A DNA stretch of 64,000 nt from Alphaproteobacteria bacterium. Its GTDB lineage: Bacteria > Pseudomonadota > Alphaproteobacteria > Rickettsiales > JADKJE01. A program made the translations under genes and the position numbers. The stretch is from contig JADKJE010000004.1 of assembly GCA_016722515.1 (NCBI GenBank), positions 7,544 through 71,543 of the forward strand, written 5' to 3'. The notes below the pieces were generated by a model, which worked only from the letters and a program-made list of their open reading frames with translations, made no database searches and was not told where the DNA came from. This document shows, in pieces, positions 5,988-28,615 of the stretch (position 1 is the stretch's first letter; each line of letters begins with the position of its first letter).

Positions 5988-6263
5988 CACAGAGCCTACC
6001 TGAGGCTTCTCGTGTCCCTTTGAGTCCACCCAGTTGTGACACCAGAAGCGGTGCATCTCTTTATCGTAGTAAAAGTTATCTGGATGAAACATTGGGCAAG
6101 GCTTCTGCCCTCGGCAGTAATTACGTGGGGTTACGCTTTTATCTGTATGGGTGCAGCCGGGACATATATCGACCGCTAACGCCAACCCCACCCGCATCGC
6201 CGTATCTTCAGCATCTTCTCTCATAAGAACCTGCCTTTCTGGATAGAACCCCACCTCTACCAT
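5976..6263 (-). CDS. hypothetical small Cys-rich protein (start uncertain; could be the Met at 6224)
   Basis: 95-aa ORF with CPGCTH...C...CP...WCHNW and no family that I recognise. It lies directly downstream of the 6285-6306 palindrome. Confidence 0.3.
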   Translation of the reverse strand: MVEVGFYPERQVLMREDAEDTAMRVGLALAVDICPGCTHTDKSVTPRNYCRGQKPCPMFHPDNFYYDKEMHRFWCHNWVDSKGHEKPQVGSVLCG

Positions 6264-6284: not shown

Positions 6285-6306
6285 GTCATTGATTTAGATC
6301 AATGAC
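6285..6306. promoter_or_regulatory. perfect 9-bp inverted repeat GTCATTGAT-TTAG-ATCAATGAC: FNR-box consensus and/or nar-operon terminator
   Basis: The core TTGAT-TTAG-ATCAA (6289-6302) is a perfect FNR box. On the minus strand the same hairpin is followed by TTTTTCTTATTTT, so it could also terminate the nar operon. Confidence 0.5.
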
Positions 6307-9712: not shown

Positions 9713-9716
9713 TGCC

Positions 9717-12700: not shown

Positions 12701-13514
12701 GCACCTCGGTGAAGAAGTGGGCATCCGGCGTGCGCGTTTGCGGCACATTGCTGCCCCAGGCAATAATGAAATTGGAGTTATACCAGTCAGCGGATTCTGG
12801 CACGTCTGTCTGCTCGCCCCATGTTTGCGGGCTGGAAGGAGGCAGATCGCAATACCAGTCGTAAAAGCTCATACATACGCCACCAATCAGCGACAGGTAG
12901 CGCGATCCTGCGGCGTAGGACACCATTGACATGGCAGGAATCGGCGAGAAGCCGATGATACGGTCGGGTCCGTGCTGCTTTGCCGTATAGACGTTGGCGG
13001 CAGCAATGATTTCATTCACTTCATCCCAATCGGTGCGAACAAAGCCGCCCAGACCGCGCACTTTCTGATAGGATTTGCGGGTTTGCTCGTTACCCACTAC
13101 CGCTGCCCATGCATTCACAGGGTCTTTGGCGATTTTTTTCGCATCGCGGTAGGCTTTCAGCAAGCGGCTGCGAATGAGCGGGTATTTCAAGCGGTTGGCG
13201 CTATAGAGATACCAGGAATAGCTTGCGCCACGCGAACAACCACGCGGCTCATGGTTCGGCATATCCGGGCGGGTGCGCGGATAGTCCGTTTGTTGCGTTT
13301 CCCATGTGACAAGACCGTTTTTCACATAAATCTTCCAGCTGCACGAGCCAGTGCAATTCACGCCATGGGTGGAGCGCACAATTTTGTCATGCTGCCAGCG
13401 ATCACGGTAGGTGTGCTCCCACTCGCGTGACTCATCGGTGGTGATACCGTGGCCGCCCGCGAATGGCTCTTTCACTTGTTTGAAAAAGGTCAGCTTGTCG
13501 ATTAAATAGCTCAT
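9717..13514 (-). CDS. narG: respiratory nitrate reductase alpha subunit (Mo-bisMGD)
   Basis: 1265 aa. The N-terminus ...RWQHDKIVRSTHGVNCTGSCSWKIYVKNGLVTWETQQTDYPRTRPD is nearly identical to the E. coli NarG signature. Confidence 0.97.
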   Translation of the reverse strand: MSYLIDKLTFFKQVKEPFAGGHGITTDESREWEHTYRDRWQHDKIVRSTHGVNCTGSCSWKIYVKNGLVTWETQQTDYPRTRPDMPNHEPRGCSRGASYSWYLYSANRLKYPLIRSRLLKAYRDAKKIAKDPVNAWAAVVGNEQTRKSYQKVRGLGGFVRTDWDEVNEIIAAANVYTAKQHGPDRIIGFSPIPAMSMVSYAAGSRYLSLIGGVCMSFYDWYCDLPPSSPQTWGEQTDVPESADWYNSNFIIAWGSNVPQTRTPDAHFFTEVRYKGAKTVAVTPDYSEVAKLCDLWMHPKQGTDAALAMAMGHVIAAEWHVKGKSDYFDDYCRMYTDMPFLVRLIKNKDGYLVPERMLRASDFEGNMGTDNNPDWKPVIMCGHEEKVRIPNGTIGSRWGQKGKWNLEPKDEVTGEELWPLLSLMEHSKREVVSAAFPYFGNLEHEHFNSTDHASILERNIPAIKMKLKDGEAIVTTCYDLFIANYGVDRGLGGGNVASSFDDDVPYTPAWQEHITGVKREHVINVARQFAENAHKTHGKSMVIIGAAMNHWYHMDMNYRAIINMLVMCGCIGKSGGGWSHYVGQEKLRPQTGWAPLAFATDWNRPPRQQNSTSFFYAHTDQWRYEKLKMEEILSPLEDNTDWKNASFIDCNAKSERMGWLPSAPQMERNPLELGKIIKDSGEAVGAAVAAGLKSGELKLSCHNPDAPQNWPRNMFVWRSNILGSSGKGHEYFLKHLLGTQHGVQGKDLGEEGRSLSKEVVWHDKAPEGKLDLLVTLDFRMSTTCMYSDIVLPTATWYEKHDLNTSDMHPFIHPLSAAVDPAWESRTDWDIYKGIAKKFSEVCVGHLGVEQDVVLNPIKHDTQNEIAQGIDVKDWMRGECEPIPGKTMPSVHLVERDYPNTYKKFTSLGPMLAKLGNGGKGVSWNTEHELKALADLNYTVTEEGISKGQPRIETAIDAAETIMMLAPETNGEVAVKAWKALGEATGRDHTHLADTREDEKIRYRDIQAQPRKIISSPTWSGIESEHVSYTAGYTNVHELIPWRTLTGRQQLYQDHSWMRAFGEQLCTYKPPVDLKTTDEVSKRFGKGRKEVVLNFITPHQKWGIHSTYTDNLLMLTLSRGGPIIWVSEIDAKKIGVIDNDWVEAYNANGALTARAVVSQRVPEGMMMMYHAQEKIVNVPGSEITGARGGIHNSVTRTVLKPTHMIGGYAQLSYDFNYYGTVGSNRDEFVVLRKMDKVEWMNEDSYGDKLFHGEIPRLEQTALGKQGA

Positions 13515-13574
13515 ATTGTGCTCTTCCTAGGATGTTATGCTGCTGGATGTTAGGTGGCGAACTGCCTCGCGTGA

Positions 13575-13588
13575 TTGATGTGGATCAA
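13575..13588. promoter_or_regulatory. perfect FNR/Dnr box TTGAT-GTGG-ATCAA upstream of narG
   Basis: Perfect consensus match. The centre is about 68 nt upstream of the narG ATG, in the narK-narG spacer. Confidence 0.65.
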
Positions 13589-13609
13589 CTTCTCGCTTTT
13601 TCATGAAAT

Positions 13610-14923
13610 TTAGCATTTTACCTCGGCTCCTTTGCGGAAATACCAGATGTAGGTCACAAACAGGCAGGTGACGTAGTAGCCGATGAAACCCCATAGGGCG
13701 GTGTCAGCGGCACCGGTTGCTTCAATCGACCAGCCGAAGCATTTGGGCAGTACGAATGCGCCGTAAGCAGCAATGGCCGCGCTGAAACCCAGAACAGGTG
13801 CTTTTTCCTTGGGTGGGAAAATCACACCAATCATGCGGAAAACAGATCCGTTGGCGATGCCAGTGGTGGTGAACAGCACCATGAAGCAGGCAAAGAATCC
13901 TGCGAATTGTTTGGTCTCTGGTTGGATAAAGTGAATAACGCCAACCACCGCCGCAATCATAACGATGAGGTTCCAGAATGTGACCGATGCGCCACTGGTC
14001 TTATCCGACATCCAGCCGCCAACAGGGCGGATGAGCGCACCTAAGAGCGGCCCGATAAACGCATAATCAAGTGGATTGACATCCGTGAACTGGGTTTTGA
14101 TGAGCAGCGGAAACGCCGCCGCATATCCAATGAACGAACCGAACGACATGACATAAAGCCATGTGGTGAGATACATATGCTTGCGTTTGAAAATGATAAG
14201 CTGCTCAGCGAGCGGCGTTTTGGCAGATTTCAAATTATCCATGCCAAATGCAGCAGCGAGGGTGCACAGAATAATTGGAATGACCCAGATAAAACCTGCA
14301 TTCTGTAGCCATACGGTTTTGGTTGCGCCATCTGCAGCAGTCATGGTTTGCGAAATGCCCCCCAGATCACCAAACACACTGGCACCGATGACCACGGGAA
14401 CCAGAAATTGGAGCGCGCTAACGCCCAGATTGCCGAGGCCAGCATTCAGCCCCAGCGCAGTTCCTTGCGCCTTTTTCGGAAAGAAAAAGCTGATATTCGA
14501 CATCGAAGAAGAGAAGTTGCCGCCACCAAAACCGCAGGCCAGCGCCAAAAGCAGCATGGTTTCATAAGGCGTATTCGGGTCTTGCACGGCAAGCCCAATA
14601 CCAATCGCCGGAATCAGGAGTGTGATGGTGCTTAAGACTGTCCAGTTGCGCCCACCAAAAATAGGTACGACAAACGAATAAATGATCCGCAGCGTCGCGC
14701 CCGTAAGCCCTGGCACTGCCGCGAGCGTAAATAACTGCTCTTTAGTGAAATTGAAGCCAACACTATTGAGATTGACGGCGACCGCCGACCAGATCATCCA
14801 TGTGGCGAACCCTAGAAACAGACAGGGAATCGAAATCCATAGATTGCGGCGTGCGATTTTCTTGCCGTGCTTTTCCCAGAAACTATTCTCTTCGGGGTTC
14901 CATTGTTCCAGATGTGTTGACAT
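13610..14923 (-). CDS. narK: MFS nitrate/nitrite transporter (NarK2-like)
   Basis: 437-aa 12-TM ORF immediately upstream of narG. It belongs to the NarK/NasA family by sequence character and operon context. Confidence 0.9.
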   Translation of the reverse strand: MSTHLEQWNPEENSFWEKHGKKIARRNLWISIPCLFLGFATWMIWSAVAVNLNSVGFNFTKEQLFTLAAVPGLTGATLRIIYSFVVPIFGGRNWTVLSTITLLIPAIGIGLAVQDPNTPYETMLLLALACGFGGGNFSSSMSNISFFFPKKAQGTALGLNAGLGNLGVSALQFLVPVVIGASVFGDLGGISQTMTAADGATKTVWLQNAGFIWVIPIILCTLAAAFGMDNLKSAKTPLAEQLIIFKRKHMYLTTWLYVMSFGSFIGYAAAFPLLIKTQFTDVNPLDYAFIGPLLGALIRPVGGWMSDKTSGASVTFWNLIVMIAAVVGVIHFIQPETKQFAGFFACFMVLFTTTGIANGSVFRMIGVIFPPKEKAPVLGFSAAIAAYGAFVLPKCFGWSIEATGAADTALWGFIGYYVTCLFVTYIWYFRKGAEVKC

Positions 14924-14951
14924 AAAAAGGCCTTCTTGGGTTTGAGGATTG

Positions 14952-16277
14952 CTAATGCTTGGGTGCTACATCCAGCTCAGGCAGGAATTTCGGCCCACGC
15001 AGTTCGGGGTGTTTCTGTTTTTCCATCAACATGATGGCAAAATGCATCCAGATAAGTGCTGCCGACACCAGCACGAAGAGCAGCATGAAGCAGCTCGTCC
15101 AGATGTTGGTGAGGTCATTGAGAATGCCGAATGCTAAGGGTAGGAAGAAACCACCAAGGCCGCCTATCAGCCCAACAATTCCCGCAACAGAGCCGACGTT
15201 ATCGGGGTAATAGACAGGGATATGCTTATAAACGGCAGCCTTGCCAAACGACATGAATAGACCCAACACGAATATGATCACTGTGAAGGGAACAACGCTA
15301 AGCCCCGTGCTGAACTCTATGTTTTCGCCGTTAATGCCGTGAATGACATAATCGGTGGATGGATAGCTGAGGATGAAGCAACAGATGATGCAGACGCTGA
15401 ACGTCCAGTACATGACTTTGCGCGCACCGTATTTATCCGACATCCAGCCGCCGATAGCGCGGAAAGCCGAAGCGGCGATAGAGAAGCTGGCAGCGAGCAT
15501 CCCTGCGACTTTAATGTCTAGCCCATACGCTCCGACATAATAGCGCGGCATCCATAAAGCGAGCGCCACAAACGCGCCAAATACGAAGAAATAATAGAGC
15601 GAAAAGCGCCATACTTGCAGTTTTTTGAGAGGTGCAAGCGCCATTTTAGTGGTTTTTGCAGGTGCGCCCGTTCTGCGGCGCTCGACTAGCTCAGGCTCAT
15701 CTTTGGTCATCAGAAACCAGAGGATGGTGGTCACCGCAAGCGCAACTGCCCAGATCTGCGCCACACTATGCCAGCCATAAGCCACCATGATAAATGGCGC
15801 ACCGAATTTGGTGACGGCAGCACCGATATTTCCCATACCGAAAATGCCAAGCGCGGTGCCTTGCCTGTCTTTGCTGTACCATTTCGAGAGATATGCAATA
15901 CCCACCACGAATGTACCGCCTGATAGCCCCATGCCAAGTGCCGTGATCAACATCATCTCATAGGTTTCTGCGTAGGTGAGCATCCATGTGGAGGCCGCTG
16001 CACAAAGCGAAACCAGCAGCATCACTCTCCGACCGCCAAACTGATCCGCCCAGATGCCTAAAAACAGCCGCACCAGCGATCCGGTGAGGATTGGTGTGCC
16101 GATAAGCAGACTAAACTGCGTATCGTTTAGATTCAGCTCCTGTTTAATCTGTACCCCAATAATGGCGAAGATCGTCCAGACGGCAAAGTTCAGCGTAAAC
16201 TCCAGCGTCGTGCTGTAAAGCGCACGATTTTGCTGGCTGGCAGGGATTGTTTTTAAGTTAACCATAAGAGACCTCAC
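14952..16277 (-). CDS. narK: MFS nitrate/nitrite transporter (NarK1-like)
   Basis: 441-aa 12-TM ORF, the first gene of the narK-narK-narGHJI arrangement. Confidence 0.9.
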   Translation of the reverse strand: MRSLMVNLKTIPASQQNRALYSTTLEFTLNFAVWTIFAIIGVQIKQELNLNDTQFSLLIGTPILTGSLVRLFLGIWADQFGGRRVMLLVSLCAAASTWMLTYAETYEMMLITALGMGLSGGTFVVGIAYLSKWYSKDRQGTALGIFGMGNIGAAVTKFGAPFIMVAYGWHSVAQIWAVALAVTTILWFLMTKDEPELVERRRTGAPAKTTKMALAPLKKLQVWRFSLYYFFVFGAFVALALWMPRYYVGAYGLDIKVAGMLAASFSIAASAFRAIGGWMSDKYGARKVMYWTFSVCIICCFILSYPSTDYVIHGINGENIEFSTGLSVVPFTVIIFVLGLFMSFGKAAVYKHIPVYYPDNVGSVAGIVGLIGGLGGFFLPLAFGILNDLTNIWTSCFMLLFVLVSAALIWMHFAIMLMEKQKHPELRGPKFLPELDVAPKH

Positions 16278-16325: not shown

Positions 16326-16339
16326 TTGATCCGTATCAA
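16326..16339. promoter_or_regulatory. perfect FNR/Dnr box TTGAT-CCGT-ATCAA in the narK / hemN divergent region
   Basis: Perfect consensus match. The centre is 66 nt upstream of the hemN GTG and 56 nt upstream of the narK ATG. Confidence 0.65.
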
Positions 16340-16390: not shown

Positions 16391-16404
16391 TTGATCTGTG
16401 TCAA
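16391..16404. promoter_or_regulatory. second FNR-like box TTGAT-CTGT-GTCAA
   Basis: One mismatch. It overlaps the predicted hemN GTG start, so if functional it probably serves narK (about 120 nt upstream). Confidence 0.4.
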
Positions 16405-17780
16405 GCACTCTAGCCGCGCCGTCCTTTGAAACACCTGAGAAACCGCCAACTTGGCTGGGGTTGCAAGCGCCGCGCTATACCAGCTACCCATCGGCGCAGC
16501 ATTTTCATGCTGGCGTGAATGCGGATCTACATGCGTCGTGGCTTGCCTCCATACGCAAGGATCAAACGGTTTCTGCCTATGTACATATTCCGTTTTGCAG
16601 GGAGCTATGCTGGTTTTGCGGTTGCCACACCAAGATGACCTACCGTGATGAACCGATAGAAAAATACGTGCGCGTATTGCTGGATGAGATTGCACTGATT
16701 GGAAAGCACGCCGCTGGGAAAGGAATATTGAAGCAGATTCACTTTGGCGGCGGAAGCCCAAGCCTGCTGAACGAATCACAGCTCATGTCAATTTTGTATG
16801 CACTGGCATCAGCGTTTGAGTTTGCGCCGCCCGGCGAGCTTGCGATTGAGCTTGATCCGCGCACGACCAGCGAAGAAAAAATAGCGTTTTACGGCAGCCT
16901 CGGCTTTACGCGCGTCAGTATGGGAATTCAGGACTTTGATCCAAAGGTGCAGAAGGCGGTGAATCGCATCCAATCGTTTGAGATGGTCGCAGGATTAATG
17001 AAGCGACTGCATGAAGCAGGAATTCATCAGATCAACACCGACCTGATTTATGGTCTGCCTTATCAAACCGTGACCAGTTTTGAGCATACATTAAAGCAAA
17101 CGCTGTCGCTTACACCATCACGCATTGCGCTCTTCTCTTATGCCCATGTGCCGCATATGAAAAAGCATCAGCGCTTAATTGATGAACATGCGCTACCCGA
17201 TGATCGCACGAAGCTCACGCTTTATCGGATGGCGACAGAGTTTTTGCTCGCAAATGGCTACACAGCGATTGGTATCGACCACTTTGCGCGCGCGGATGAC
17301 AGCCTCACAGTTGCAGCGAACTCTCATCGCATGCGGCGTAATTTTCAAGGATACGTCACCGATACCACCGATATTTTGCTGGGCTTTGGTACCTCTGCCA
17401 TTAGTCAGTTTCCGGGCGGGTATACCCAGAATTACAGCGCCACACACGAGTACAGTAAACGGATTGAAGCGGGTCAGCTCGCCACATGCCGAGGCTGGAA
17501 AGCGGGCGCACAGGATAGCTTCCGCAAAGAAATTATCGATACGCTAATGTGCTACATGGAGGCCGACATAGGCCAAATTGCTGCTAAGCACGGTCAGGAC
17601 GCAAATATTTGCGCGCGCGAGCTGACATTGCTGCAGGAATGTGCCTACAGCGATATTGCACATACAAAGGGAAACCTAGTGCAGATTGCCACGCCGTATC
17701 GCATGGCATCGCGCGCGGTCGCGGCGGTATTTGATCAGTATCAACTACCTGACTCTGCTCAGTATTCGAGAGTATCCTAA
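16398..17780 (+). CDS. hemN: oxygen-independent coproporphyrinogen III oxidase (radical SAM)
   Basis: 460 aa with PRYTSYP and the radical-SAM cluster motif CRELCWFCGC. GTG start with GAGG 8 nt upstream. Confidence 0.9.
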   Translation: MSSTLAAPSFETPEKPPTWLGLQAPRYTSYPSAQHFHAGVNADLHASWLASIRKDQTVSAYVHIPFCRELCWFCGCHTKMTYRDEPIEKYVRVLLDEIALIGKHAAGKGILKQIHFGGGSPSLLNESQLMSILYALASAFEFAPPGELAIELDPRTTSEEKIAFYGSLGFTRVSMGIQDFDPKVQKAVNRIQSFEMVAGLMKRLHEAGIHQINTDLIYGLPYQTVTSFEHTLKQTLSLTPSRIALFSYAHVPHMKKHQRLIDEHALPDDRTKLTLYRMATEFLLANGYTAIGIDHFARADDSLTVAANSHRMRRNFQGYVTDTTDILLGFGTSAISQFPGGYTQNYSATHEYSKRIEAGQLATCRGWKAGAQDSFRKEIIDTLMCYMEADIGQIAAKHGQDANICARELTLLQECAYSDIAHTKGNLVQIATPYRMASRAVAAVFDQYQLPDSAQYSRVS

Positions 17781-17796
17781 CGATGGAGAATCCCAC

Positions 17797-18216
17797 ATGA
17801 AAAACTTGGATCGTTTTCGTCATGAACATGCAGAAATACTGGGAATTGCGTATGAGATTCGCCATCTGCTGCAACCAGATCACGTGTCAAAAAATGCTGG
17901 CATGCTACATGCGCTCCTTGCGCAGTTGACCCGAAAAACCTTGGCGCATCTGCTTCATGAAGACCGCAGCGTTTATCAGGAGCTATTACTCAGCGAACAT
18001 GAACCCACCAGAATGCTTGCCAGAAATCACGCACAAAGCATGGGTTGCTTTGCGGATAGCCTTAAGCACTATCTAAATGACTGGCCTGATACGCAGACTC
18101 TTGCCCGCAAACCAAAGCAATTTTGCGAGCAGACGCAGGCGCTGATTGCGGACCTTGAGCGCCGAATTGATCATGAAGAGCGCGGATTATACCCTTTTTC
18201 GGAAGGCCGAGCATGA
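17797..18216 (+). CDS. hemerythrin (HHE cation-binding) domain protein
   Basis: ORF 17686..18216; ATG at 17797 preceded by GGAGA. His/Glu pairs (RHEHAEI, HLLHEDR, IDHEER) are typical of hemerythrin-like sensors. Confidence 0.7.
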   Translation: MKNLDRFRHEHAEILGIAYEIRHLLQPDHVSKNAGMLHALLAQLTRKTLAHLLHEDRSVYQELLLSEHEPTRMLARNHAQSMGCFADSLKHYLNDWPDTQTLARKPKQFCEQTQALIADLERRIDHEERGLYPFSEGRA

Positions 18217-18842
18217 AGCGCATCGACATACAAATGCCATTCGATCCGCCCTATGGAGAGCGGGCAGAATCCAGTCCAACACTCAAGTTTTCTGAGTGGT
18301 ATGGGCAAGCGAAATTAAAAGAAAAGCAGGATGTTTCGGCAGTTTGTCTTGCAACTGCCACACGCTGCGGCGCACCTTCCTGCCGCATGGTGCTTTTGAA
18401 AGATTTCAGTGAGTCGGGCTTCACCTTCTATACCAATGCACAGAGCCGCAAAGGCTGCGATATCGATGATAATCCGCAGGCAGCCATGTGTTTCTATTGG
18501 CCTGAATGCGGCCTTCAGATTCGCGTGGAGGGCTTTGTAACCAACCTGAGCGATACGGAGGCAGATGCGTATTTTAATACGCGCCCTCTCAAATCACGAA
18601 TCGGGGCATGGGCATCGCAGCAGTCGAGGCCGCTTAAAGACCGATCCGAACTCATGAAGCGCATTGCTTATTACACGGCTAAATGGGCAACGGGAAACGT
18701 TGAGAGACCACCGTACTGGAAAGGTTTTCGGATCGTACCTGATTATTTTGAATTTTGGGGTAACGGCGCATATCGCATTCACGAGCGTCACATTTATTAC
18801 CTGCGTGATGACGATTGGTACGAGGCTATGCTGCAACCTTAA
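18213..18842 (+). CDS. pdxH: pyridoxamine 5'-phosphate oxidase
   Basis: 209 aa with the PdxH-type C-terminus ...FWGNGAYRIHERHIYYLRDDDWYEAMLQP. It forms an ATGA overlap with the hemerythrin gene. Confidence 0.85.
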   Translation: MKRIDIQMPFDPPYGERAESSPTLKFSEWYGQAKLKEKQDVSAVCLATATRCGAPSCRMVLLKDFSESGFTFYTNAQSRKGCDIDDNPQAAMCFYWPECGLQIRVEGFVTNLSDTEADAYFNTRPLKSRIGAWASQQSRPLKDRSELMKRIAYYTAKWATGNVERPPYWKGFRIVPDYFEFWGNGAYRIHERHIYYLRDDDWYEAMLQP

Positions 18843-20067
18843 GCAAATGGCGAGCAACACTAATTGGCGTTGGAATGCTTAAGCCTCTATCTCTCGATTC
18901 TTTCTCCGTGAGTTTTGCCATCATCATAGATTTGATAGGCAACATACGGTCTGCCGCACGCAGCAGTACTCTTCTGGCAATTTTTGCAGGCATACTGTCG
19001 TTGGTGTAAAGGCGCACAATACCGCTAGTGGCCAGATAGAGAGGCTTAGTCGCCTGTTTGTGCTCTCGCTCATAATGCGCCAGCACGGCAGCTGAAGCAA
19101 TGTCGCTGCCAGTGTTCATAGCGGCTCTGATCGACTCACACAGTGCGTGCGCGCTTTTGAGGCCAAAATTGAATCCATGCGCCGTCACTGGGTGCATCCC
19201 CACCGCCGCATCGCCCACCAGCGCAAAACGCTGCGCCACAAAGCGATCCGCATACACACCCACCAGCGGGTATGCAAAGCGTTCGCTATCAAGCCGCATG
19301 TTGCCTAGCCGATACTGAAATTGTTTAGCGACCCAAGCATTCAACTCCAGCGCAGATATCTTCATCATTCTTTCAGCTTCAGCAGGCGCAAGGGTAATAA
19401 TCACCGAAGATCGTTTGCCATTCAATGGCAACACCGCCAGCGTATGTCCATGGTGGAAGCATTCATGCGCCACGCCCTCGTGGCTTAAGTCATGCGCCAT
19501 CTGGCAAACAATCATCGTTTTGCCAAAATCATGCATTGAAGCAGAGATACCAGCTTTGCGGCGAGTTTCAGAAAAGCGGCTATCCGCAGCGGCGGCGAGT
19601 TTAGCATGTATCGCCTGACCGTTTGAAAGCTGAAGTTTGGTTACATAGTCTTCCAGCTCCATCTGCTCCAGACTAACGTTATCCATCAGTGTGATATTGG
19701 TATCGTTCTTCACTGCTGCATAGGCGGCTGCGCGGATATGGTGGTTGGATACGATAAATGCCAGCTGATCGGTTTCAGAAGCAGAAAGCCCCATGTAGCG
19801 GGGCGATGTTCCGTCAAACACTTTTGCTTCGCGTATGATTGAAATGGCTTCAGGTGGCAGGTATTCCCACATTCCTAATGCATCGAGCATTTTCCGAGAG
19901 AAATGTGTGAGTGCAATGTCACGCCCATCAATCGCAGGATTTTCGATTGCTGTGCGGGATTGTTTTTCGATTAACAGCGTAGATAGTCCCAAACCAGAAA
20001 GGGTGCGTGCGAAGCAAAGCCCTGCTGGGCCAGCACCGACAATCGCCACATCGTAGGAATTCTGCAT
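18826..20067 (-). CDS. FAD-dependent monooxygenase, UbiH/UbiF/VisC/COQ6 family
   Basis: 413 aa; N-terminal dinucleotide fold YDVAIVGAGPAGLCFA and ...LVGDAAVGMHPVTAHGFN. Confidence 0.8.
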   Translation of the reverse strand: MQNSYDVAIVGAGPAGLCFARTLSGLGLSTLLIEKQSRTAIENPAIDGRDIALTHFSRKMLDALGMWEYLPPEAISIIREAKVFDGTSPRYMGLSASETDQLAFIVSNHHIRAAAYAAVKNDTNITLMDNVSLEQMELEDYVTKLQLSNGQAIHAKLAAAADSRFSETRRKAGISASMHDFGKTMIVCQMAHDLSHEGVAHECFHHGHTLAVLPLNGKRSSVIITLAPAEAERMMKISALELNAWVAKQFQYRLGNMRLDSERFAYPLVGVYADRFVAQRFALVGDAAVGMHPVTAHGFNFGLKSAHALCESIRAAMNTGSDIASAAVLAHYEREHKQATKPLYLATSGIVRLYTNDSMPAKIARRVLLRAADRMLPIKSMMMAKLTEKESRDRGLSIPTPISVARHLLKVAA

Positions 20068-20119: not shown

Positions 20120-20133
20120 TTGATGCAGGTCAA
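20120..20133. promoter_or_regulatory. FNR-like box TTGAT-GCAG-GTCAA between the monooxygenase and the NIT-Crp gene
   Basis: One mismatch. The centre is 60 nt upstream of the monooxygenase ATG (20067) and 148 nt upstream of 20274. Confidence 0.5.
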
Positions 20134-20168
20134 CTTCAGAAAGCTGAAAAATTAACGTCCTAAGGTTT

Positions 20169-20206
20169 GGCCCGCCGCGGGCCGCGGCCCCCCCGAGAAG
20201 GGGGCC
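20169..20206. repeat. 38-nt nearly pure G/C double hairpin (GGCCCGC-C-GCGGGCC and GGCCCCC-CCGAGAA-GGGGGCC)
   Basis: Read directly from the sequence: two adjacent perfect 7-bp GC stems in an otherwise AT-rich divergent promoter region. The composition resembles the 38731-39194 tract. Confidence 0.6.
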
Positions 20207-20273
20207 TGGATTTCTATTTGAGATTTTTGCCGTTACGGCTATAGTCACTGAAAAAATAGCGGAACTATGCCTG

Positions 20274-21851
20274 ATGACCAGTGTGTTATACGATTTTTGT
20301 GATTTTATCCATGAAGCCCAGAAGGAACGCGGCTCTGTATCTCTGTATCTGCGAAGCCATGGACAACAGTTTTCCGAGGAGCTGGAATCACAATTTGCGG
20401 TCGTTGATACGCGCCTGAAGCCCCTGAACACATTGCCGAAGCAGCAAAATGCTAAGCTGGAGCCATTTTTGCATGCTGCCCATTATTTGGCGGCGAAACG
20501 CAAATATATCATTGCGCGGATGATTGAAGCGCCGGAAGCGATCTCTTTTTACAGCCGCGAGATTATTGCCCCTGCCATTGATATTACGCAGGAACTGGCG
20601 GTGTTTGATGCCGATAATCAACCTGCCAAAGTTGCGGCACTTATGCATTTTTTGCAGTGGAAAGAGCGTGTTGGGCTTGAACGAGCACTTGGAACGCAAC
20701 TGCTGACAATGGATTGGAAAGAGTCCCCCGAACTCAGAGAGCGGCTGCAATACATCATTTCCGAGCAGCAAGCCTATGAGCGCATGTTCATGATGCTGGC
20801 TGATAGCAAAGGCCGCGAAGCTATCGAGAAGTTGAAGAAGGAAAATGACAGCTTTAAGCGTGTGGAAGAGATTCACTCAGCCCTTAAAAACGGCACTTCT
20901 CCACAACTAGAAGCCCTGAACGCAACCGAGTGGTTTAATTTGTTTACCGCAAAAATGGATGTACTGCACGAAGTCAGCCGCATGATGATTAAGCAGCTCT
21001 CTAAAGCAGATGAGCCTGCCCAGAAGCTCGCAAAGACGAATGGCAAAGCACCCGAAGCATCTGTGCCAGCCCTCAGTCAGGGCGTTGCAGATGCAAGCGG
21101 AATTGAGTCAGGTGTGCGTGCTTATATGGATACGATCAAAGTGCTGCCGCTCTTTGCAGGACTCGATGCCGCCAACTTGAATGATATTCTGAAATATGCC
21201 CGCATCACTAATCACAATAAAGGTACCCTCATTTTTATGCAGGGTGAACAGGCTTCACGTTTTTACATCATCTTAGAGGGATGGGTGAAGCTGTTTAAGG
21301 GCAATGTTGATGGTCAGGAGTCCATTCTGCAGGTGCTGAGTACGGGCGACAATTTGCTGGAAACCGTCATTTTTAATGATACGCCGCTGCCGGTGAATGC
21401 ACAAGCAGTCGACAATGTAAAGCTGCTCTCAATTCCAGCCTCAATGATTCGAGAGAAACTTAAGAATAATCATGCATTGGCAGTGAATATGCTTTCCACC
21501 GTTTCTGGCAGATCTCAGGCGCTGATTAGCCAGTTTGAGCAACTGACGCTTAAAACCGTGACACAGCGTGTAGGCTGGTTCCTACTGAAGCTGTTCTTAG
21601 AAAGCGGTGATCGTACAAAAAATCTCAAGCTGCCTTATGATAAATCGCTGATTGCTGGCTATCTCGGCATGAAACCTGAGACGTTCTCACGCACGCTTCA
21701 AACACTCAAAGAGCAAGGCATCGATGTGGAGCGAAGCAGCATCAGTCTGCCCGATGTATTCGCACTATGCGATTTCTGTGATAGTGACCTTGCCGTTCAG
21801 TGCAGCCGCCACAATACACCCGAATGCCCAAACCCTGTTTGTATGAATTAG
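20274..21851 (+). CDS. one-component regulator: N-terminal NIT (nitrate/nitrite-sensing) domain fused to a Crp/Fnr cNMP-binding + HTH module, with C-terminal Cys cluster
   Basis: 525 aa. The N-terminus FIHEAQKERGSVSLYLRSHG... is NIT-like. LPLFAGLDAANLNDIL...FYIILEGWVKLFKG is the Crp/Fnr effector domain. The HTH is GYLGMKPETFSRTLQTLKEQG, with the FNR-type E--SR recognition motif. The tail is CDFCDSDLAVQCSRHNTPECPNPVC. Confidence 0.75.
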   Translation: MTSVLYDFCDFIHEAQKERGSVSLYLRSHGQQFSEELESQFAVVDTRLKPLNTLPKQQNAKLEPFLHAAHYLAAKRKYIIARMIEAPEAISFYSREIIAPAIDITQELAVFDADNQPAKVAALMHFLQWKERVGLERALGTQLLTMDWKESPELRERLQYIISEQQAYERMFMMLADSKGREAIEKLKKENDSFKRVEEIHSALKNGTSPQLEALNATEWFNLFTAKMDVLHEVSRMMIKQLSKADEPAQKLAKTNGKAPEASVPALSQGVADASGIESGVRAYMDTIKVLPLFAGLDAANLNDILKYARITNHNKGTLIFMQGEQASRFYIILEGWVKLFKGNVDGQESILQVLSTGDNLLETVIFNDTPLPVNAQAVDNVKLLSIPASMIREKLKNNHALAVNMLSTVSGRSQALISQFEQLTLKTVTQRVGWFLLKLFLESGDRTKNLKLPYDKSLIAGYLGMKPETFSRTLQTLKEQGIDVERSSISLPDVFALCDFCDSDLAVQCSRHNTPECPNPVCMN

Positions 21852-21861
21852 TTTCAGGCAG

Positions 21862-21875
21862 TTGATCCACATCAA
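21862..21875. promoter_or_regulatory. perfect FNR/Dnr box TTGAT-CCAC-ATCAA upstream of the moa leader
   Basis: Perfect consensus match. A class II spacing would put the transcription start near 21910, at the 5' edge of the Moco riboswitch. Confidence 0.65.
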
Positions 21876-21904
21876 TTGCTAAAACGCCTTTCCTTTTTAC
21901 CCTT

Positions 21905-22026
21905 CCATCATCCGAAGCCTGAAACGCCTAACGGCTGACATGTGCCAGTCCAAGGATTTCAGGCCGTGGGCATAAGCTCACCGGGTAGCGGCGGAAACGT
22001 CTCTGCCTCCCGCGTTTGGAAAGGAT
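21905..22026 (+). promoter_or_regulatory. molybdenum-cofactor (Moco) riboswitch in the moaA leader
   Basis: CCGAAGCCUGAAA...GGAUUUCAGGC (perfect 8-bp stem, 21917-24 with 21957-64), CUCACCGGG, GCCUCCC (22005-11) and GGAAAGG (22018-24) directly before the ATG. These match my recollection of the E. coli moaA Moco motif. No covariance model was run. Confidence 0.75.
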
Positions 22027-23004
22027 ATGAAGGTGTTGAAGGATTCATTTGGGAGGAAATTCCCCTATTTAAGACTGTCCGTGACGGAAGTGTGTAACTT
22101 CCGCTGCACCTATTGCTTGCCCAATGGCTACCAGAAAACTGACCGTGACTTCCTCACACTCCCTGAGATCACCCGACTTGCAACGGCTTTTGCTGAGCTT
22201 GGCACCCATAAAATCCGCCTGACGGGTGGTGAACCAACGGTGCGGAAGGATTTGACCCAGATTGCGCGCGTCGTCAGCAACATTCCGGGCATTCGCACGG
22301 TAGCACTCACCACCAACGGCTATAATCTGAAGGAAAATGCCAGAGCCTTCCGCGATGCGGGCATCAATGCACTCAATGTCAGTGTCGATAGCCTTGATAG
22401 CGAGCGGTTTCACGCCATCACCGGTCAGGATAAGCTCACGCATGTACTGGAAGGTATCGAAGCGGCAAAAGCGGCAGGATTCACCAATATCAAGATCAAC
22501 TCGGTGCTTCTCAAAGAAGTGACTGACCACACGCTGCCGGAATTCCTGTTGTGGATTCAGCGAGAGGCACTCTCGGTGCGCTTTATCGAGTTGATGCAAA
22601 CGGGCGAGAATCTAGCCTTCTTCAAACAACACCATATCGGTGCTGGTGTGATTATTCAGCAGCTCTTAGAGCATGGGTTCGTGCCAGAGCTTCGCAAGCC
22701 CGATAGTGGCCCAGCGCAGGAATTTACCCATCCTGACTATGCGGGGAAAATCGGCATCATTGCGCCGTATTCCAAGGATTTCTGCAAAAGCTGTAACCGC
22801 CTGCGCGTTACCTCGCGCGGCAAGCTGATGCTCTGCCTGTTTGGCGAAGGCGGCTACGATCTACGCCCATACTTACAAGCCGATGACCAACGCGAAGAAC
22901 TCATTGATGCCATTGCTTCGGCGCTGCATTTCAAACATGAAACACATTATTTACAGCAAGGAATCACCGGCTCCACGCCGCACCTTGCGACACTCGGAGG
23001 ATAG
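22027..23004 (+). CDS. moaA: GTP 3',8-cyclase (radical SAM)
   Basis: 325 aa; LRLSVTEVCNFRCTYCLP cluster motif; C-terminal ...GG. Confidence 0.95.
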   Translation: MKVLKDSFGRKFPYLRLSVTEVCNFRCTYCLPNGYQKTDRDFLTLPEITRLATAFAELGTHKIRLTGGEPTVRKDLTQIARVVSNIPGIRTVALTTNGYNLKENARAFRDAGINALNVSVDSLDSERFHAITGQDKLTHVLEGIEAAKAAGFTNIKINSVLLKEVTDHTLPEFLLWIQREALSVRFIELMQTGENLAFFKQHHIGAGVIIQQLLEHGFVPELRKPDSGPAQEFTHPDYAGKIGIIAPYSKDFCKSCNRLRVTSRGKLMLCLFGEGGYDLRPYLQADDQREELIDAIASALHFKHETHYLQQGITGSTPHLATLGG

Positions 23005-23990
23005 ATGAAGCCTAGTTTTCAAATGATCGATGTCGGGAATAAACCCATTAAGCACCGTATTGCTGTTGCCAGTGGTGAAATTGTCGTCGGGGCAGAAGCA
23101 TTTGCGTTGATTCGTGATCGCAAACTACCCAAAGGCGATGTGCTGATGCTGGCGGAAATCGCTGGTATTCAGGGGGCTAAAAAGGCCTACGAGATGATCC
23201 CGCTCTGCCACCCGATGGGGTTGGACATGGTGCGTGTTTTCACCGAACTCTTGCCCGAAGTGAATGCCTTGCGTGTGTTTGCGTGGCCTCGGTGCATGCA
23301 AAAACCGGCATTGAGATGGAGGTGCTGGCGGGGGTGAACGCCGCGCTGCTCACCATCTGGGATTTGAGCAAGATGATCGAGGCGAATCTTGCCATGCGCG
23401 AGATTAAGCTCCTCGCCAAGAAAGGCGGGAAATCTGGCTTGTGGCTGAACCCTGCTGGCGTTCCAGATTGGGTGCTGGAACTGGTGAATCCGCCAGTTGC
23501 AAAACTACTAGCAGGCCGTAAAGCCGCCGTGCTTACCTTAAGTGATCGCGCCGCCAAGGGCGAATATGAGGATGTTTCGGGTGCGACGCTCAAAGCCGAA
23601 TTGGAAGAAGCCGGATGCAGCATTTGCGATTACCAGGTCATTCCTGATGATAAAGACGGTATCGCTGCGACAGTACAGGAAATGGTGACGCGCCACACGC
23701 CGCATCTGCTTATCACCACGGGCGGTACGGGTGTTTCGCCCCGCGATTATACACTCGAAGCCTTGTTGCCGCTGTTCGATAAAGTAATCCCTGGCGTAGG
23801 AGAATTATTACGTAATCACGGCGCACAGTACACACCACTTTCGTGGAGCAGTCGCGCAGTCGGCGGCATTATCGGCTCTACGCTGGTTATCACGCTACCG
23901 GGCAACCCTGCCGCTGTCAGCGAGGGCTTAGGCACCTTGTTGCCGAAACTCATTCCACATCTTATCCGCATTTCAAACGGAGAAAAATAA
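23005..23990 (+). pseudogene. moaC: moaC fused to a moaB/mog-type domain, reading frame broken near 23283 (apparent 1-nt deletion; may be a sequencing error)
   Basis: ORF 23005..23337 carries MoaC residues up to ...MIPLCHPMGLDMVRVFTELLPEVNALRVFA. ORF 23283..23990 continues in the -1 frame with VASVHAKTGIEMEVLAGVNAALLTIWDL...KKGGKSG. It then runs into a MoaB/MogA domain (LTLSDRAAKGEYEDVSG...LITTGGTGVSPRD). Confidence 0.8.
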
Positions 23991-25246
23991 TGATTTCATA
24001 CGAAGAAGCATTAAAGATTATCACTGGCCAAGCAGGCGCGCCAAAGGTGCAGCAAGTTCCGCTCATGCAGGCATTGGGAAAGATTGCAGCTGAGGACGTG
24101 ACAAGCCCGATGCAGGTGCCGAGCTTCCGTAATAGCGCGATGGATGGATTCGCCGTGTGTGCGGCGCAGCTCGCAAGCGCCAGCGAACCAAGCCCCGTGA
24201 CCTTAAAAATTCAGACGGCTATTGCTGCAGGAGATGTGGCTTCTGCCGGACACACGGAGACTGCCGCGCAGATCATGACAGGCGCTATCGTGCCAGAACC
24301 CTATGACGCTATTGTGCCAGTGGAGCTAGTGACAGCGAGCGGCGATACGGTGACATTCACCAGACCTGCGCACATGGGCGATCATGTGAGGCTTCCGGGC
24401 GAGGATGTGACGAAGGGTCAGTCCGTGTTGCGCCGTGGCGAGACGATTACGCCCGAAACGATTATGCTGCTCTCCAGCTTGGGAATCGTGGAAGTGGCAA
24501 CTACGCACACGCCAAAACTTCATATCCTCAGCACGGGCAATGAAATCACGGATGATTATGCGACGCAGCTACAAGGCACGCAGATTTACAATTCCAACGT
24601 ACCGTATTTGCTGGCTGTAGCCAAGCAGCAAGGGCTGGATGCCCAATATGAAGGGATTGTGCGCGATGATCCTGCACTGTTCGAGAGAAAAATTGCTGCG
24701 ATCAAAGAACCCGCGATACTCATCAGCACGGGCGCGGTCTCGAAGGGTGTATGGGATTTTATCCCTGAGAGTCTGAAAAATATGGGCGCAACAATCCACT
24801 TCCACCGCGTCAACATTCGCCCTGGAAAGCCTGTGTTGTTTGCAATATTGCCAAACGGCAGCTTCTATTTTGGCTTGCCGGGGAATCCGATTTCAGCGGC
24901 GATTGGCTTTACATTCTTCGTGATGCCGCTGGTGCGAGCACTGCAAGGCCTGCCTGATGCACCGCCGCTCATGGCGACATTGGAAAACAACTTCACCAAG
25001 AAAGGTAACTTCCGCCAATTCCTGAAAGCATCAGTCTGGCTGGATGAAACGGGATGCTTGCGCACAAATATCAGCGATGGTCAGGAGTCCTTCAAGATCA
25101 GCCCGATGGCCGCGAATAATGCTTGGGTGGTGCTGGAGGAAGAAAAGACAGTGGTCAAAGCGGGTGATCGCGTGTCTGTCGTGCTTTACGCCGCATTAAA
25201 AACAACAAGCCGCAACGAGGATAAAACACTATGTCAGGCAGCATAA
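23990..25246 (+). CDS. moeA: molybdopterin molybdenumtransferase
   Basis: ORF 23843..25246; ATG at 23990 overlaps the previous stop (TAATG). MISYEEALKIITG... is MoeA-like throughout. Confidence 0.9.
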   Translation: MISYEEALKIITGQAGAPKVQQVPLMQALGKIAAEDVTSPMQVPSFRNSAMDGFAVCAAQLASASEPSPVTLKIQTAIAAGDVASAGHTETAAQIMTGAIVPEPYDAIVPVELVTASGDTVTFTRPAHMGDHVRLPGEDVTKGQSVLRRGETITPETIMLLSSLGIVEVATTHTPKLHILSTGNEITDDYATQLQGTQIYNSNVPYLLAVAKQQGLDAQYEGIVRDDPALFERKIAAIKEPAILISTGAVSKGVWDFIPESLKNMGATIHFHRVNIRPGKPVLFAILPNGSFYFGLPGNPISAAIGFTFFVMPLVRALQGLPDAPPLMATLENNFTKKGNFRQFLKASVWLDETGCLRTNISDGQESFKISPMAANNAWVVLEEEKTVVKAGDRVSVVLYAALKTTSRNEDKTLCQAA

Positions 25247-25485
25247 CCCTTACCGTCAATCTCTTCGGTGCGTTTCGTGGGCATGAGAATGGCAAACCAC
25301 TCACACTTAGCCTGCCACATGGCGCGACGCTGATTGAGGCACGGCGTGCACTCAAAGCCGCACTTGATAACAATCCGCTGATTGATGATTCCGCACTGGC
25401 CGATGAAACGCAAATTTTGCCCGAAGATGCGGTATTCGAGCGCGACACCCAGCTCGCCATTCTGCCACCCGTGTGCGGAGGCTGA
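25231..25485 (+). CDS. moaD: molybdopterin synthase sulfur-carrier subunit
   Basis: 84 aa ending in ...LPPVCGG (C-terminal Gly-Gly). Confidence 0.85.
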   Translation: MSGSITLTVNLFGAFRGHENGKPLTLSLPHGATLIEARRALKAALDNNPLIDDSALADETQILPEDAVFERDTQLAILPPVCGG

Positions 25486-25487
25486 CG

Positions 25488-25940
25488 ATGACGCAATCCA
25501 TCTATACGGGCATCAGCGAGGAAACACTATCCATCCAAAAAGCCGCCGATTTTGTGGATGCGGCGGAGAATGGCGCGCTGAATATGTTTATCGGCAAAGT
25601 GCGCAATCACAATATGGGCAAGGCCGTGAATGCGGTGAGTTACGATGTATTCGCGCCGCTGGCCTGCAATGTGTTTCAGGAAATCTGCGCGGAAGCGACG
25701 GCGCAATTCGGCGAGCGTCTGCGGCTTTATATCGAGCATTACAAAGGCAAGCTGGAGATTGGCGGCATTAGCGTCATCATCGCTGTCGGCTCGCCCCACC
25801 GCGATGAATCCTTTCAGGCCTGCCGTTACCTGATCGAGCAACTCAAAATCCGCGCGCCGATCTGGAAGCAGGAACATTACGTGGACGGTGTTAGTGAGTG
25901 GGTCAAAGGCCATACGCTCTGTGGGCATCACCATGGATGA
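25488..25940 (+). CDS. moaE: molybdopterin synthase catalytic subunit
   Basis: ATG at 25488, 2 nt after the moaD stop. MoaE-like ...FIGKVRNHN...PIWKQEHY. Confidence 0.9.
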   Translation: MTQSIYTGISEETLSIQKAADFVDAAENGALNMFIGKVRNHNMGKAVNAVSYDVFAPLACNVFQEICAEATAQFGERLRLYIEHYKGKLEIGGISVIIAVGSPHRDESFQACRYLIEQLKIRAPIWKQEHYVDGVSEWVKGHTLCGHHHG

Positions 25941-26490
25941 TGTTGCCGCAGTCATACTAGTCGGAGGCAAATCCTCGCGCATGGGGCAGGATAAGGCATT
26001 GCTGCCTTACAAGGGCAAGCGGCTGGTGGATGTGGTGGCGGATACGATACGAGCCGCTGGTGTATCGCGTGTTTATGTGAGTGGTAAAATCGCTGATTAC
26101 CCAAGTTTCCCCGATCTGCTTTCAGAGTGCGGCCCGGTGAGTGGTATCTGTTCTTGTATTTTAAGATTGTCGATAAATTACAAACGGCTGCTTTTTGTGC
26201 CGGTTGATATGCCTTACCTGACAGAAGAACTGATTCGACTGCTTGTGGATTGCCCTGCACATAAAACGCACCACATTGAAAATCATCCGCTTCCCTGCAT
26301 TATTCCGACGGATGAAGCGGCCACACGACATGCAGATAGCTGCATTCAGGAGTTGGTAAAGAAGAAAAAATTGTCCGTAAAAGAATTTTTAGCGAGGCTA
26401 AACGCAATATCAGTACCGCTATCAAGGCAGATGGAAAAGGCGCTCACCAACACCAACACGCCGGAAGAATGGCAGGAGGTCATCTCATGA
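25933..26490 (+). CDS. mobA: molybdenum cofactor guanylyltransferase
   Basis: ATG at 25933 (MDDVAAVILVGGKSSRMGQDKALLPY), overlapping moaE by 8 nt. Confidence 0.85.
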   Translation: MDDVAAVILVGGKSSRMGQDKALLPYKGKRLVDVVADTIRAAGVSRVYVSGKIADYPSFPDLLSECGPVSGICSCILRLSINYKRLLFVPVDMPYLTEELIRLLVDCPAHKTHHIENHPLPCIIPTDEAATRHADSCIQELVKKKKLSVKEFLARLNAISVPLSRQMEKALTNTNTPEEWQEVIS

Positions 26491-28450: not shown

Positions 28451-28464
28451 TTGATCTGGGTCAA
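28451..28464. promoter_or_regulatory. FNR-like box TTGAT-CTGG-GTCAA
   Basis: One mismatch. The centre is only about 42 nt from the moeB ATG, so its function is uncertain. Confidence 0.4.
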
Positions 28465-28547
28465 CACAATTGAACGAACTAGAAATCAGAAAGCAACCAA
28501 CTCGTTAACCTCTTGTTAACCAAAGGTTGCATTCTCACTGAAAACAG

Positions 28548-28561
28548 TTGATCTGAATCAA
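28548..28561. promoter_or_regulatory. perfect FNR/Dnr box TTGAT-CTGA-ATCAA upstream of the RIC gene
   Basis: Perfect consensus match. The centre is 62 nt upstream of the ATG at 28616. Confidence 0.65.
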
Positions 28562-28615
28562 TCCACAAACGCCACGAACTCCATAGGCTTGAATTAACAA
28601 TAGGGAGTTTTGGCT

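Follow-up and report, generated by a model that had tools for sequence, protein, structure and literature searches.

The stretch of DNA considered here is 64,000 nucleotides of contig JADKJE010000004.1 from an alphaproteobacterial genome of the Rickettsiales (assembly GCA_016722515.1), and this whole stretch is called the window. The gene under study lies on its plus strand at 20274 to 21851, between a cluster for respiratory nitrate reductase (nar) and a moa/mob operon. It encodes a protein of 525 amino acids (aa) in which a nitrate- and nitrite-sensing (NIT) domain is joined to a Crp/Fnr module with a DNA-binding helix-turn-helix (HTH) and a tail of four cysteines. The parts of the gene are given below. 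The domain limits come from Pfam, from an alignment of 40 diverged homologues (alignment A1), and from an AlphaFold2 (AF2) model that took 40 homologues as input and has a mean predicted local distance difference test score (pLDDT) of 83.

20274 to 21851 including the stop codon, plus strand: NIT-Crp/Fnr fusion gene, ATG start, 525 aa (list of open reading frames, ORFs).
20301 to 20999, plus strand: NIT domain, aa 10-242 (Pfam PF08376, E 1.6e-31, profile positions 1-238 of 239).
21015 to 21089, plus strand: inter-domain linker, aa 248-272, predicted to be disordered (AF2 pLDDT <50; gappy, unconserved columns 300-345 of A1).
21213 to 21470, plus strand: beta-barrel of the cyclic nucleoside monophosphate (cNMP) binding type, aa 314-399 (Pfam PF00027, 4e-18; AF2 strands at 310-388).
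21471 to 21551, plus strand: long C-helix, aa 400-426, the expected dimerisation helix (AF2; aligned to the same helix of 3fx3 and DNR).
21564 to 21773, plus strand: Crp-type winged HTH, aa 431-500 (Pfam PF13545, HTH_Crp_2, 1.6e-11).
21678 to 21692, plus strand: recognition helix E469-T-F-S472-R473, within the HTH (AF2 HTH at aa 457-479).
21768 to 21827, plus strand: four-cysteine motif C499-x2-C502-x7-C510-x7-C518, a candidate metal site (iron-sulphur, Fe-S, or zinc; alignment).

An earlier, sequence-only reading of this DNA had proposed that a NIT domain, a Crp/Fnr effector and a cysteine tail are combined in one 525-aa protein. The Pfam scan bears this out: all three domains (NIT PF08376, cNMP_binding and HTH_Crp_2) are found in the product of the single uninterrupted ORF, which is the protein quoted in that reading. 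A homologue search that covered 5.8 billion proteins (NCBI, JGI, ENA and Logan, isolate genomes included) gave 341 matches. Among the best 120 of these, nearly all are 504-547 aa long and share the three Pfam domains, with identities as low as 38%. The full-length homologues that are colinear with the fusion number more than 100 and are 38-97% identical to the window protein. They carry generic database names, either "nitrate- and nitrite sensing domain-containing protein" or "CRP-like cAMP-binding protein". The survey of their distribution shows a conserved family that is mostly alphaproteobacterial. At species level the carriers are mostly metagenome-assembled genomes of Rickettsiales, Hyphomicrobiales and Hyphomonadaceae, and one such assembly, labelled Pseudomonadota bacterium KLAP13, is 98% identical to the window. 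The fusion is also carried by the isolates Asticcacaulis tiandongensis, Asticcacaulis sp. W401b and Pseudaquidulcibacter saccharophilus, and its locus was seen in at least 20 metagenomes from wastewater, activated sludge, river and biofilm samples.

Could separate NIT and Crp genes have been fused artificially, by a frameshift, by misassembly or through a chimeric join? The sole hint of this is the low-complexity, poorly conserved linker at aa 248-272, and the probability of an artefact is negligible given the single ORF, the colinear homologues that include isolates, and metagenome contigs that are identical over the junction. A 23.8-kb contig (run X1) spans 20218-22100 and a contig of another study (X2) spans 20289-22100, both with 0 differences and 0 indels. 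Contigs from four wastewater metatranscriptome runs carry pieces of the gene, and two of these RNA-derived contigs cross the domain junction (20792-21068 and 20883-21104), which also speaks against an artefact. The fusion is genuine. A DNA search of the fusion gene against plasmids gave no match, and a protein search against plasmids found only stand-alone Crp/Fnr relatives at about 35% identity. The annotated contexts of these relatives (Paracoccus TOH p1, an R. pomeroyi megaplasmid, Paracoccus MC1862 and R. capsulatus pRCB133) are mixed and the regulator NarR, discussed below, was not identifiable in them. The sequence-only reading had named no characterised NIT-Crp/Fnr regulator, and a literature search likewise turned up no description of one; most subscription journals lie outside the coverage of that search and the absence is not proof. 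Both modules and the regulon logic are already known, and it is the NIT-Crp/Fnr pairing and the cysteine-tail subfamily that are, to our knowledge, uncharacterised.

In the NIT half, the A1 residues H13, Q16, E18, R19, G20, K130, G134, R137, G140 and W220 are invariant and E136 is nearly so, and the NIT motifs H-x2-Q-x-E-R-G and K-E-x2-G-x-E-R are both present and conserved. NasR (PDB 4AKK) is matched by this domain at 5e-20 with the family profile and at 7e-12 with the single sequence. R19 aligns with the Arg of the Q-x-E-R-G motif in the first helix of NasR, which would correspond to R50 on the assumption of a 27-residue tag offset, as R176 implies. E136 and R137 align with NasR E175 and R176, which have been described as predicted nitrate-pocket residues (PMC7496416). 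In the AF2 model the N-terminal module (aa 1-245) is all-helical, with a helix pLDDT of about 80-98. When the whole model was searched with Foldseek the best 50 matches were all Crp proteins and NasR was not among them; because Crp matches filled these places, the NIT assignment rests on sequence profiles. The linker that follows varies in length and sequence across the family. No Pfam match to an ANTAR domain was found in the fusion protein, the C-terminal half of which is Crp/Fnr.

The Crp/Fnr half (aa ~275-510 in the AF2 model) has the complete superfamily layout of barrel, long dimerisation helix and C-terminal winged HTH by Pfam, AF2 and Foldseek, with target-normalised template modelling (TM) scores of about 0.8 against CRP, GlxR and holo-FNR. 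The sequence-only reading had singled out a recognition helix of the FNR E--SR type, and this has been confirmed. The helix PETFSR lies at aa 468-473, its residues E469, T470, S472 and R473 are invariant in 40 of 40 homologues (A1), and it is identical to the recognition helix of DNR in the family-profile alignment. FNR-type recognition of DNA, with TTGAT half sites read by the E--SR helix, is therefore predicted from the sequence. The module scores 32 bits with the NCBIfam Fnr model (cutoff 228), and its best NCBIfam model is NF006901 ("FtrB"), with 120 bits against a cutoff of 211. Two ligands known from other Crp/Fnr proteins were considered for the barrel. A cNMP seems unlikely: in a comparison with CRP aligned by hand, not by a program, the residue that takes the place of the phosphate-binding Arg appears not to be basic. 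DNR/NnrR-type sensors of nitric oxide (NO) hold haem in their sensor barrel by means of conserved ligands. Within the Crp half A1 shows no invariant His, and haem-based NO sensing of the DNR type seems unlikely.

The cysteine tail after the HTH is strictly conserved, with C499, C502, C510 and C518 invariant in 40 of 40 homologues (A1) and identically spaced in 115 of 115 full-length members. The sequence-only reading was thus right that a cysteine cluster exists, but its second gap is x7 and not x8, and the fifth cysteine that it included (C523, x4 after C518) is not conserved. The only Cys in the first 498 residues of the window protein is C9, which is not invariant, and the canonical N-terminal Cys cluster of FNR is absent from the fusion protein. 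A PDB sequence search with the tail alone found no relative. Relatives of the tail were found when the C-terminal module (aa 275-525) was searched in 1.84 billion representative proteins, which gave 257 matches at E <=1e-30. The best 150 of the 257 are made up of long proteins with a fused NIT domain (about 45) and short Crp/Fnr proteins that stand alone (about 95), and 51 of the 95 short proteins carry the identical motif LCx[FY]CD-x6-C-x7-C. The tail is not specific to the fusion. The remaining short proteins have CxxCSx4-6C tails or no cysteines, as in SPOA0323 (3FX3). An N-terminal FNR-type Cys motif is missing from all 51 stand-alone tail-bearing proteins, some of which contain no Cys other than the four of the tail. 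The stand-alone tail proteins are about 240-285 aa long (P0124, P0126, P0135, P0149, P0167 and 46 others; loci L024-L029).

Genomic contexts were sampled for five of the stand-alone tail-bearing members. One is divergent from ompW-ccoNOQP-ccoGH-ccoI, the second lies between a HemN-like gene and ccoS/ccoI, the third follows straight after narGHJ-nnrS-narI and precedes a modABC-like transporter, the fourth is beside haem-biosynthesis genes, and the fifth is on a short contig with no readable context. The cco and hemN loci are the usual home of the oxygen-sensing fnrL and fnrP genes. Because of these contexts, and because Bacillus Fnr ligates a [4Fe-4S] cluster through a C-terminal Cys extension (PMC3520743), a sensory Fe-S site is the most attractive reading of the tail, and a Zn site or a purely structural site would also be possible. 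The stand-alone tail proteins could form a class of FNR-like sensors, as yet undescribed, in which the cluster is C-terminal.

The tail raises the question of whether the fusion is mainly a sensor of O2 or redox state, an analogue of FNR with a C-terminal cluster in which the NIT domain is secondary or serves another ligand. The occurrence of an invariant tail in NIT-less proteins that lack the N-terminal FNR cysteines and sit at classic fnr loci or after narGHJI would fit such a role, as would the Bacillus precedent. The NIT domain of PA4520 from P. aeruginosa has also been shown to bind no nitrate and no nitrite (PMC6381276), so that the presence of a NIT domain is no guarantee of its ligand. 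On the other side, the NIT domain of the fusion is full length and its predicted pocket residues are conserved as strictly as the cysteines, the tail motif differs from that of Bacillus and has no PDB relative, and its role could be that of a Zn or purely structural site. We regard a mainly O2- or redox-sensing role as unlikely, and the genomic setting bears on it as well.

The features of the setting and of the candidate control regions are as follows.

6797 to 16277, minus strand: narK1-narK2-narG-narH-narJ-narI, respiratory nitrate reductase cluster (Pfam).
13575 to 13588, no strand given: perfect FNR-type box before narG, centred 67.5 bp upstream of its start.
16326 to 16339 (perfect) and 16391 to 16404 (one mismatch), no strand given: pair of boxes between narK1 and the hemN-like gene, 65 bp apart.
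20120 to 20133, no strand given: box TTGATGCAGGTCAA between the regulator and the ubiH-like gene, which starts at 20067 on the minus strand (box scan).
20218 to 20245, plus strand: sigma-70-like promoter (TTGAGA, 16 nt, TATAGT) before the regulator (consensus scan 10/12; a pattern match only).
21862 to 21875, no strand given: perfect box TTGATCCACATCAA, 11 bp past the regulator stop codon and 158.5 bp before the moaA ATG.
21898 to 22042, plus strand: molybdenum cofactor (Moco) riboswitch in the moaA leader, overlapping the moaA start codon (Rfam RF01055).
22027 to 26490, plus strand: moaA, moaC/moaB, moeA, moaE, mobA operon, directly downstream of the regulator (Pfam).
28451 to 28561, no strand given: two boxes between moeB (minus strand) and a hemerythrin gene (plus strand) (box scan, Pfam).

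Between the nar cluster and the regulator are a HemN-like radical-SAM gene, a hemerythrin gene, a PNPOx-type gene and a gene for a UbiH-like FAD monooxygenase. After mobA come moeB (ThiF-rhodanese, minus strand), another hemerythrin gene, and PAS and methyl-accepting chemotaxis protein (MCP) genes, and further out in the window are NnrS, NnrU and a flavohaemoglobin. Among the window ORFs of at least 150 aa there is no NarX/NarL pair, in agreement with the sequence-only reading that no narXL lies beside this nar operon, and no second Crp/Fnr gene.

The linkage to nar and moa is shared by the relatives of the regulator. Twelve related loci with a full-length homologue (52-98% identity) were compared, and in all twelve the regulator gene is immediately followed by moaA-moaCB-moeA-moaE-mobA. 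The regulator is divergent from narK-narK-narGHJI wherever the contig extends far enough: directly so in L005 and L007, and in L003 and L008-L012 with about 0.4-3 kb separating the regulator from the nar cluster on the other strand. The window and L001 alone carry the hemN-like, PNPOx and ubiH-like genes between narK and the regulator. Three distant family members (~41% identity) were also checked for context. One is divergent from narK-narGHJI. In the second (L021:10001-21515) the order is the NIT-Crp gene, mobA, a NarR/FtrB-type gene, a fused 912-aa narK and narGHJ. In the third (L022:7357-11539, 41% identity) the NIT-Crp gene is divergent from an SCP2 gene and two U32 peptidase genes that are ubiTUV-like. 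These ubiT-ubiU-ubiV-like genes are of the type for oxygen-independent ubiquinone synthesis, and nrdD and a radical-SAM activase gene are nearby. The link of this last member to ubiTUV-like and nrdD genes instead of nar would suit a fusion that is mainly an O2 or redox sensor. The nar/moa linkage, which is specific in 14 of the 15 loci examined, argues against that role.

The sequence-only reading had also proposed FNR-type boxes as nearby targets. The window was scanned for TTGAT-N4-ATCAA with at most one mismatch, with 100 shuffles as a control, and 14 boxes were observed where 2.8 are expected (about 5-fold); none of the 100 shuffles reaches 14. Eleven of the 14 are in promoter-like positions in the first 29 kb, the nitrate island, and one of the boxes is upstream of NnrS. 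Three boxes in a prophage have one mismatch each, which equals the chance expectation. The centres of boxes lie about 55-68 bp upstream of the starts of narK1, narG and a hemerythrin gene; the first narK1 box (16326), for example, is centred 55.5 bp upstream of the narK1 start. The boxes at the flanks of the regulator are conserved across loci. A box with 0-2 mismatches is found between the regulator stop codon and moaA in 13 of 13 loci. In 12 of these the distance from the centre of the box to the aligned start of moaA is 152-180 bp, and in L012 it is 263.5 bp. Upstream of the regulator a box is present in 11 of the 13; of the other two, one has too little sequence and one has none within 450 bp. 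As candidate targets the boxes are thus borne out by enrichment in the window and by conservation, and all checks of the sequence-only reading that could be made by computation favour it.

The constant distance from the box to moaA is explained by the Moco riboswitch, which occupies the moaA leader. The RF01055 match covers the full model (1-135) with 61.4 bits against a gathering score of 36 and an E of 2.5e-12, and the conserved box is about 30 bp upstream of it. With a box and a riboswitch before moaA, the moa operon therefore appears to be under FNR-type transcription plus cofactor feedback.

The boxes allow for a regulator of the opposite sign. It could be that, without nitrate, the fusion occupies the boxes or forms inactive complexes and so blocks an activator of the FNR, FixK or NarR type, and that nitrate relieves this block. 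Boxes of this type are shared among several Crp/Fnr paralogues, L021 has a NarR/FtrB gene as well as the NIT-Crp gene, and Crp/Fnr brakes do exist, RedB being an example (PMC9603854). The box centres about 55-68 bp upstream of starts fit class II activation instead, most loci have no other Crp/Fnr gene nearby, and the NIT-Crp gene has the position of the activator NarR. Negative action is in our judgement improbable.

The reading that we consider fairly probable is that the fusion is a one-component, nitrate/nitrite-responsive regulator of nar and moa that acts through FNR-type boxes; here the ligand, the DNA target and activation as the sign of control are what we infer. It is supported by context, with moa downstream in 12 of 12 close loci and nar adjoining in two of the three distant ones, and the predicted pocket equivalents, R19 and R137 being invariant and E136 nearly invariant, would support a role in nitrate sensing. 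Also in its favour are the enriched and conserved boxes, the Crp fold with its invariant E--SR helix, the lack of a NarXL pair or other Crp/Fnr gene in the window, the NarR-like position with a two-box promoter, and the metatranscriptome pieces. In the proposed mechanism, NarK would bring nitrate into the cytoplasm, and nitrate and/or nitrite would bind to the NIT domain in a pocket between two four-helix bundles that is lined by R19 and E136/R137. Without ligand, the apo-NIT bundle on its flexible linker would keep the Crp module inactive, and ligand binding would free it. Release from autoinhibition is the way in which NasR works (PMC7496416), and this model has been borrowed because the fusion also has a partly disordered linker between sensor and output. 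The freed module would dimerise through the helix at 400-426 and bind TTGAT-N4-ATCAA with the E--SR helix. From class II-like positions, the dimer could then activate narK-narGHJI, the moa/mob operon and neighbouring genes for anaerobic metabolism and NO stress. The four cysteines after the HTH probably hold a metal centre that is needed for the DNA-binding form and that is possibly labile to O2 or NO. In this way the fusion would do the job of NarXL or NarR in these Alphaproteobacteria. The architecture, conservation, synteny, boxes, riboswitch and gene integrity have been computed; the coupling mechanism and the metal are proposals.

Several points weigh against a nitrate-responsive activator. 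PA4520 provides the precedent of a NIT domain without nitrate or nitrite binding. The AF2 model has a predicted TM score of 0.54 and the domain arrangement is not confident, and the disordered, variable linker would offer no obvious rigid signal path. The boxes are generic. Crp/Fnr paralogues often share sites (PMC8510549), and FNR, FixK, Dnr or NarR-type proteins encoded elsewhere in the genome could occupy them in place of the fusion or together with it. The centre of the box at 20120 is 147.5 bp away from the ATG of the regulator and 59.5 bp away from the start of the ubiH-like gene; its position suits the divergent ubiH-like gene better than the promoter of the regulator. One nar locus (L021) has both regulators, with NarR/FtrB beside the NIT-Crp gene, and no nar genes are found within 10 kb of the NIT-Crp gene in L022. 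Finally, the metatranscriptome contigs are weak, thin evidence that the fusion gene is transcribed, as DNA carry-over is possible.

If both conserved sites are sensory, the fusion could be an AND gate for anaerobic nitrate respiration in which the NIT domain reports cytoplasmic nitrate or nitrite, a C-terminal Fe-S site of a kind not described before reports O2 or NO, and DNA binding at the FNR-type boxes needs both. We put this forward tentatively, as something slightly short of an even chance. If it is true, the stand-alone tail proteins would be unrecognised alphaproteobacterial FNR-like O2 sensors with the cluster after the HTH.

Some further observations concern the neighbouring genes. 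The UbiH-like gene at 18826-20067 (minus strand) has its FNR-type box centred 59.5 bp upstream of the start codon; UbiH-like FAD monooxygenases are normally oxygen-dependent enzymes. The two hemerythrin genes, at 17686-18216 and 28610-29167 (both plus strand), each follow closely on an FNR-type box (17731 and 28548). After the second come the PAS and MCP genes, which suggests a module for O2- or NO-related sensing and taxis in the same regulon. Downstream of the nar cluster is a Cys-rich, unannotated ORF of 95 aa (5976-6263, minus strand) with a perfect FNR-type box just upstream (6289-6302), and it may be a small regulated gene. Between the box at 20120 and the regulator promoter lies a GC-rich stretch of 55 bp (20163-20217) that is replaced by TTCTA in metagenome contigs of three runs. 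It is an indel polymorphism that moves the box-to-gene spacing by 50 bp. In L001 the box-to-start spacing is 50 bp shorter, which fits the same TTCTA replacement. The stretch is single-copy in the window and its folding is no better than that of shuffled sequence.

A lambda-like prophage occupies about 35500-62500, mostly on the minus strand, with a GC content that rises to 0.59-0.63 at 36-40 kb. Its structural genes encode terminase gpA, portal, an S49 protease, a gpD-like decoration protein, capsid E, tail tube and tape measure. It also carries genes for tail and host-specificity proteins of the gene transfer agent (GTA) type (GTA_TIM, Phage-tail_3, Rcc01698_C and DUF2793) and for two DNA methylases. 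The Phage_tube_2 gene at 47982-49255 (minus strand) is split into an ORF at 48581-49255 that corresponds to profile positions 1-149 and an ORF at 47982-48584 that corresponds to 102-266. A frameshift, a pseudogene or a duplication could account for the split.

The family attaches a recognisable nitrate/nitrite sensor to a NarR-like output in the same genomic position. Nitrate sensing by a Crp/Fnr regulator is therefore directly testable, and cultured hosts exist in Asticcacaulis and Pseudaquidulcibacter. If the proposal is true, this would be the first NIT domain known to control a DNA-binding output, as far as we could find. The four-cysteine motif, which stand-alone proteins at cco, hemN and nar loci also carry, may mark a new position for an oxygen-sensing cluster among FNR-type proteins of proteobacteria. 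Metagenomes in which the organism is common are those of wastewater and activated sludge, where the control of nitrate reduction has practical weight, and a single-protein nitrate sensor could serve as a biosensor part.

How does the fusion compare with known systems? For the sensor half the closest parallel is NasR of Klebsiella oxytoca (NIT-ANTAR, PDB 4AKK), which is likewise a cytoplasmic one-component protein with an N-terminal NIT domain, homologous over the whole domain. Both proteins have the first-helix Arg, the E175/R176 equivalents and a partly disordered linker between sensor and output (PMC7496416, PMC12591593). Their outputs differ: that of NasR is an RNA-binding ANTAR antiterminator for assimilatory nas genes, whereas that of the fusion is a Crp/Fnr module near respiratory nar and moa genes.

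FNR (E. coli and A. fischeri) and FnrP/FnrL have the same fold as the output half (TM ~0.78 to holo-FNR), the E--SR helix, the same class of box and the same kinds of target (nar, moa and hemN). In FNR proper an N-terminal Cys cluster and a central Cys ligate a [4Fe-4S] cluster. Where FNR has its N-terminal cysteines the fusion has a NIT module of 245 aa, and its conserved cysteines are only C-terminal. The closest solved structures to the Crp half are, by family profile, Ruegeria pomeroyi SPOA0323 (3FX3/3H3Z, 2.8e-56) and DNR of Pseudomonas aeruginosa (3DKW, 1e-45). DNR is a haem-dependent NO sensor. Both are stand-alone proteins of about 230 aa without a NIT domain and without a Cys tail. 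The Fnr proteins of Bacillus subtilis and B. cereus also have a Cys-rich extension after the HTH, and it ligates an oxygen-sensing cluster (PMC3520743). The Bacillus motif is C-x2-C-x4-C plus an Asp, whereas the fusion has the four cysteines of C-x2-C-x7-C-x7-C, and homology between the tails was not detected at the sequence level; the CxxCSx4-6C tails of some short stand-alone neighbours are Bacillus-like.

The nearest functional parallel is NarR. Alphaproteobacteria are without NarXL (PMC8139620), which is reportedly replaced by NarR, a nitrate/nitrite-responsive activator (PMC8139620, PMC3541799). These papers call NarR a nitrate/nitrite sensor and describe no sensing mechanism for it. The NarR of Paracoccus pantotrophus/denitrificans is likewise a Crp/Fnr protein with the E--SR helix, is encoded divergently from narK-narGHJI, and in Paracoccus the narR-narK intergenic region contains two FNR-type boxes in the same layout as at narK1 of the window. 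NarR is about 234 aa long, has neither a NIT domain nor a Cys tail, and is 25% identical to the Crp half of the fusion. The P. pantotrophus protein, which was located by synteny as the ORF divergent from a fused narK gene, scores 338 bits with NF006901, and the model is therefore in effect that of the NarR family. In agreement with this, a Sphingopyxis "ftrB" gene divergent from narU has been called NarR-like (PMC7713065). The neighbour in L021 scores 302 bits with this model, against 120 for the Crp half of the fusion and the cutoff of 211. With these scores, the 25% identity and the coexistence of both proteins in L021, the Crp half is not simply NarR to which a NIT domain has been added. 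We conclude that the NIT-Crp protein acts from the position of NarR and probably works like NarR, while not being a member of the NarR family.

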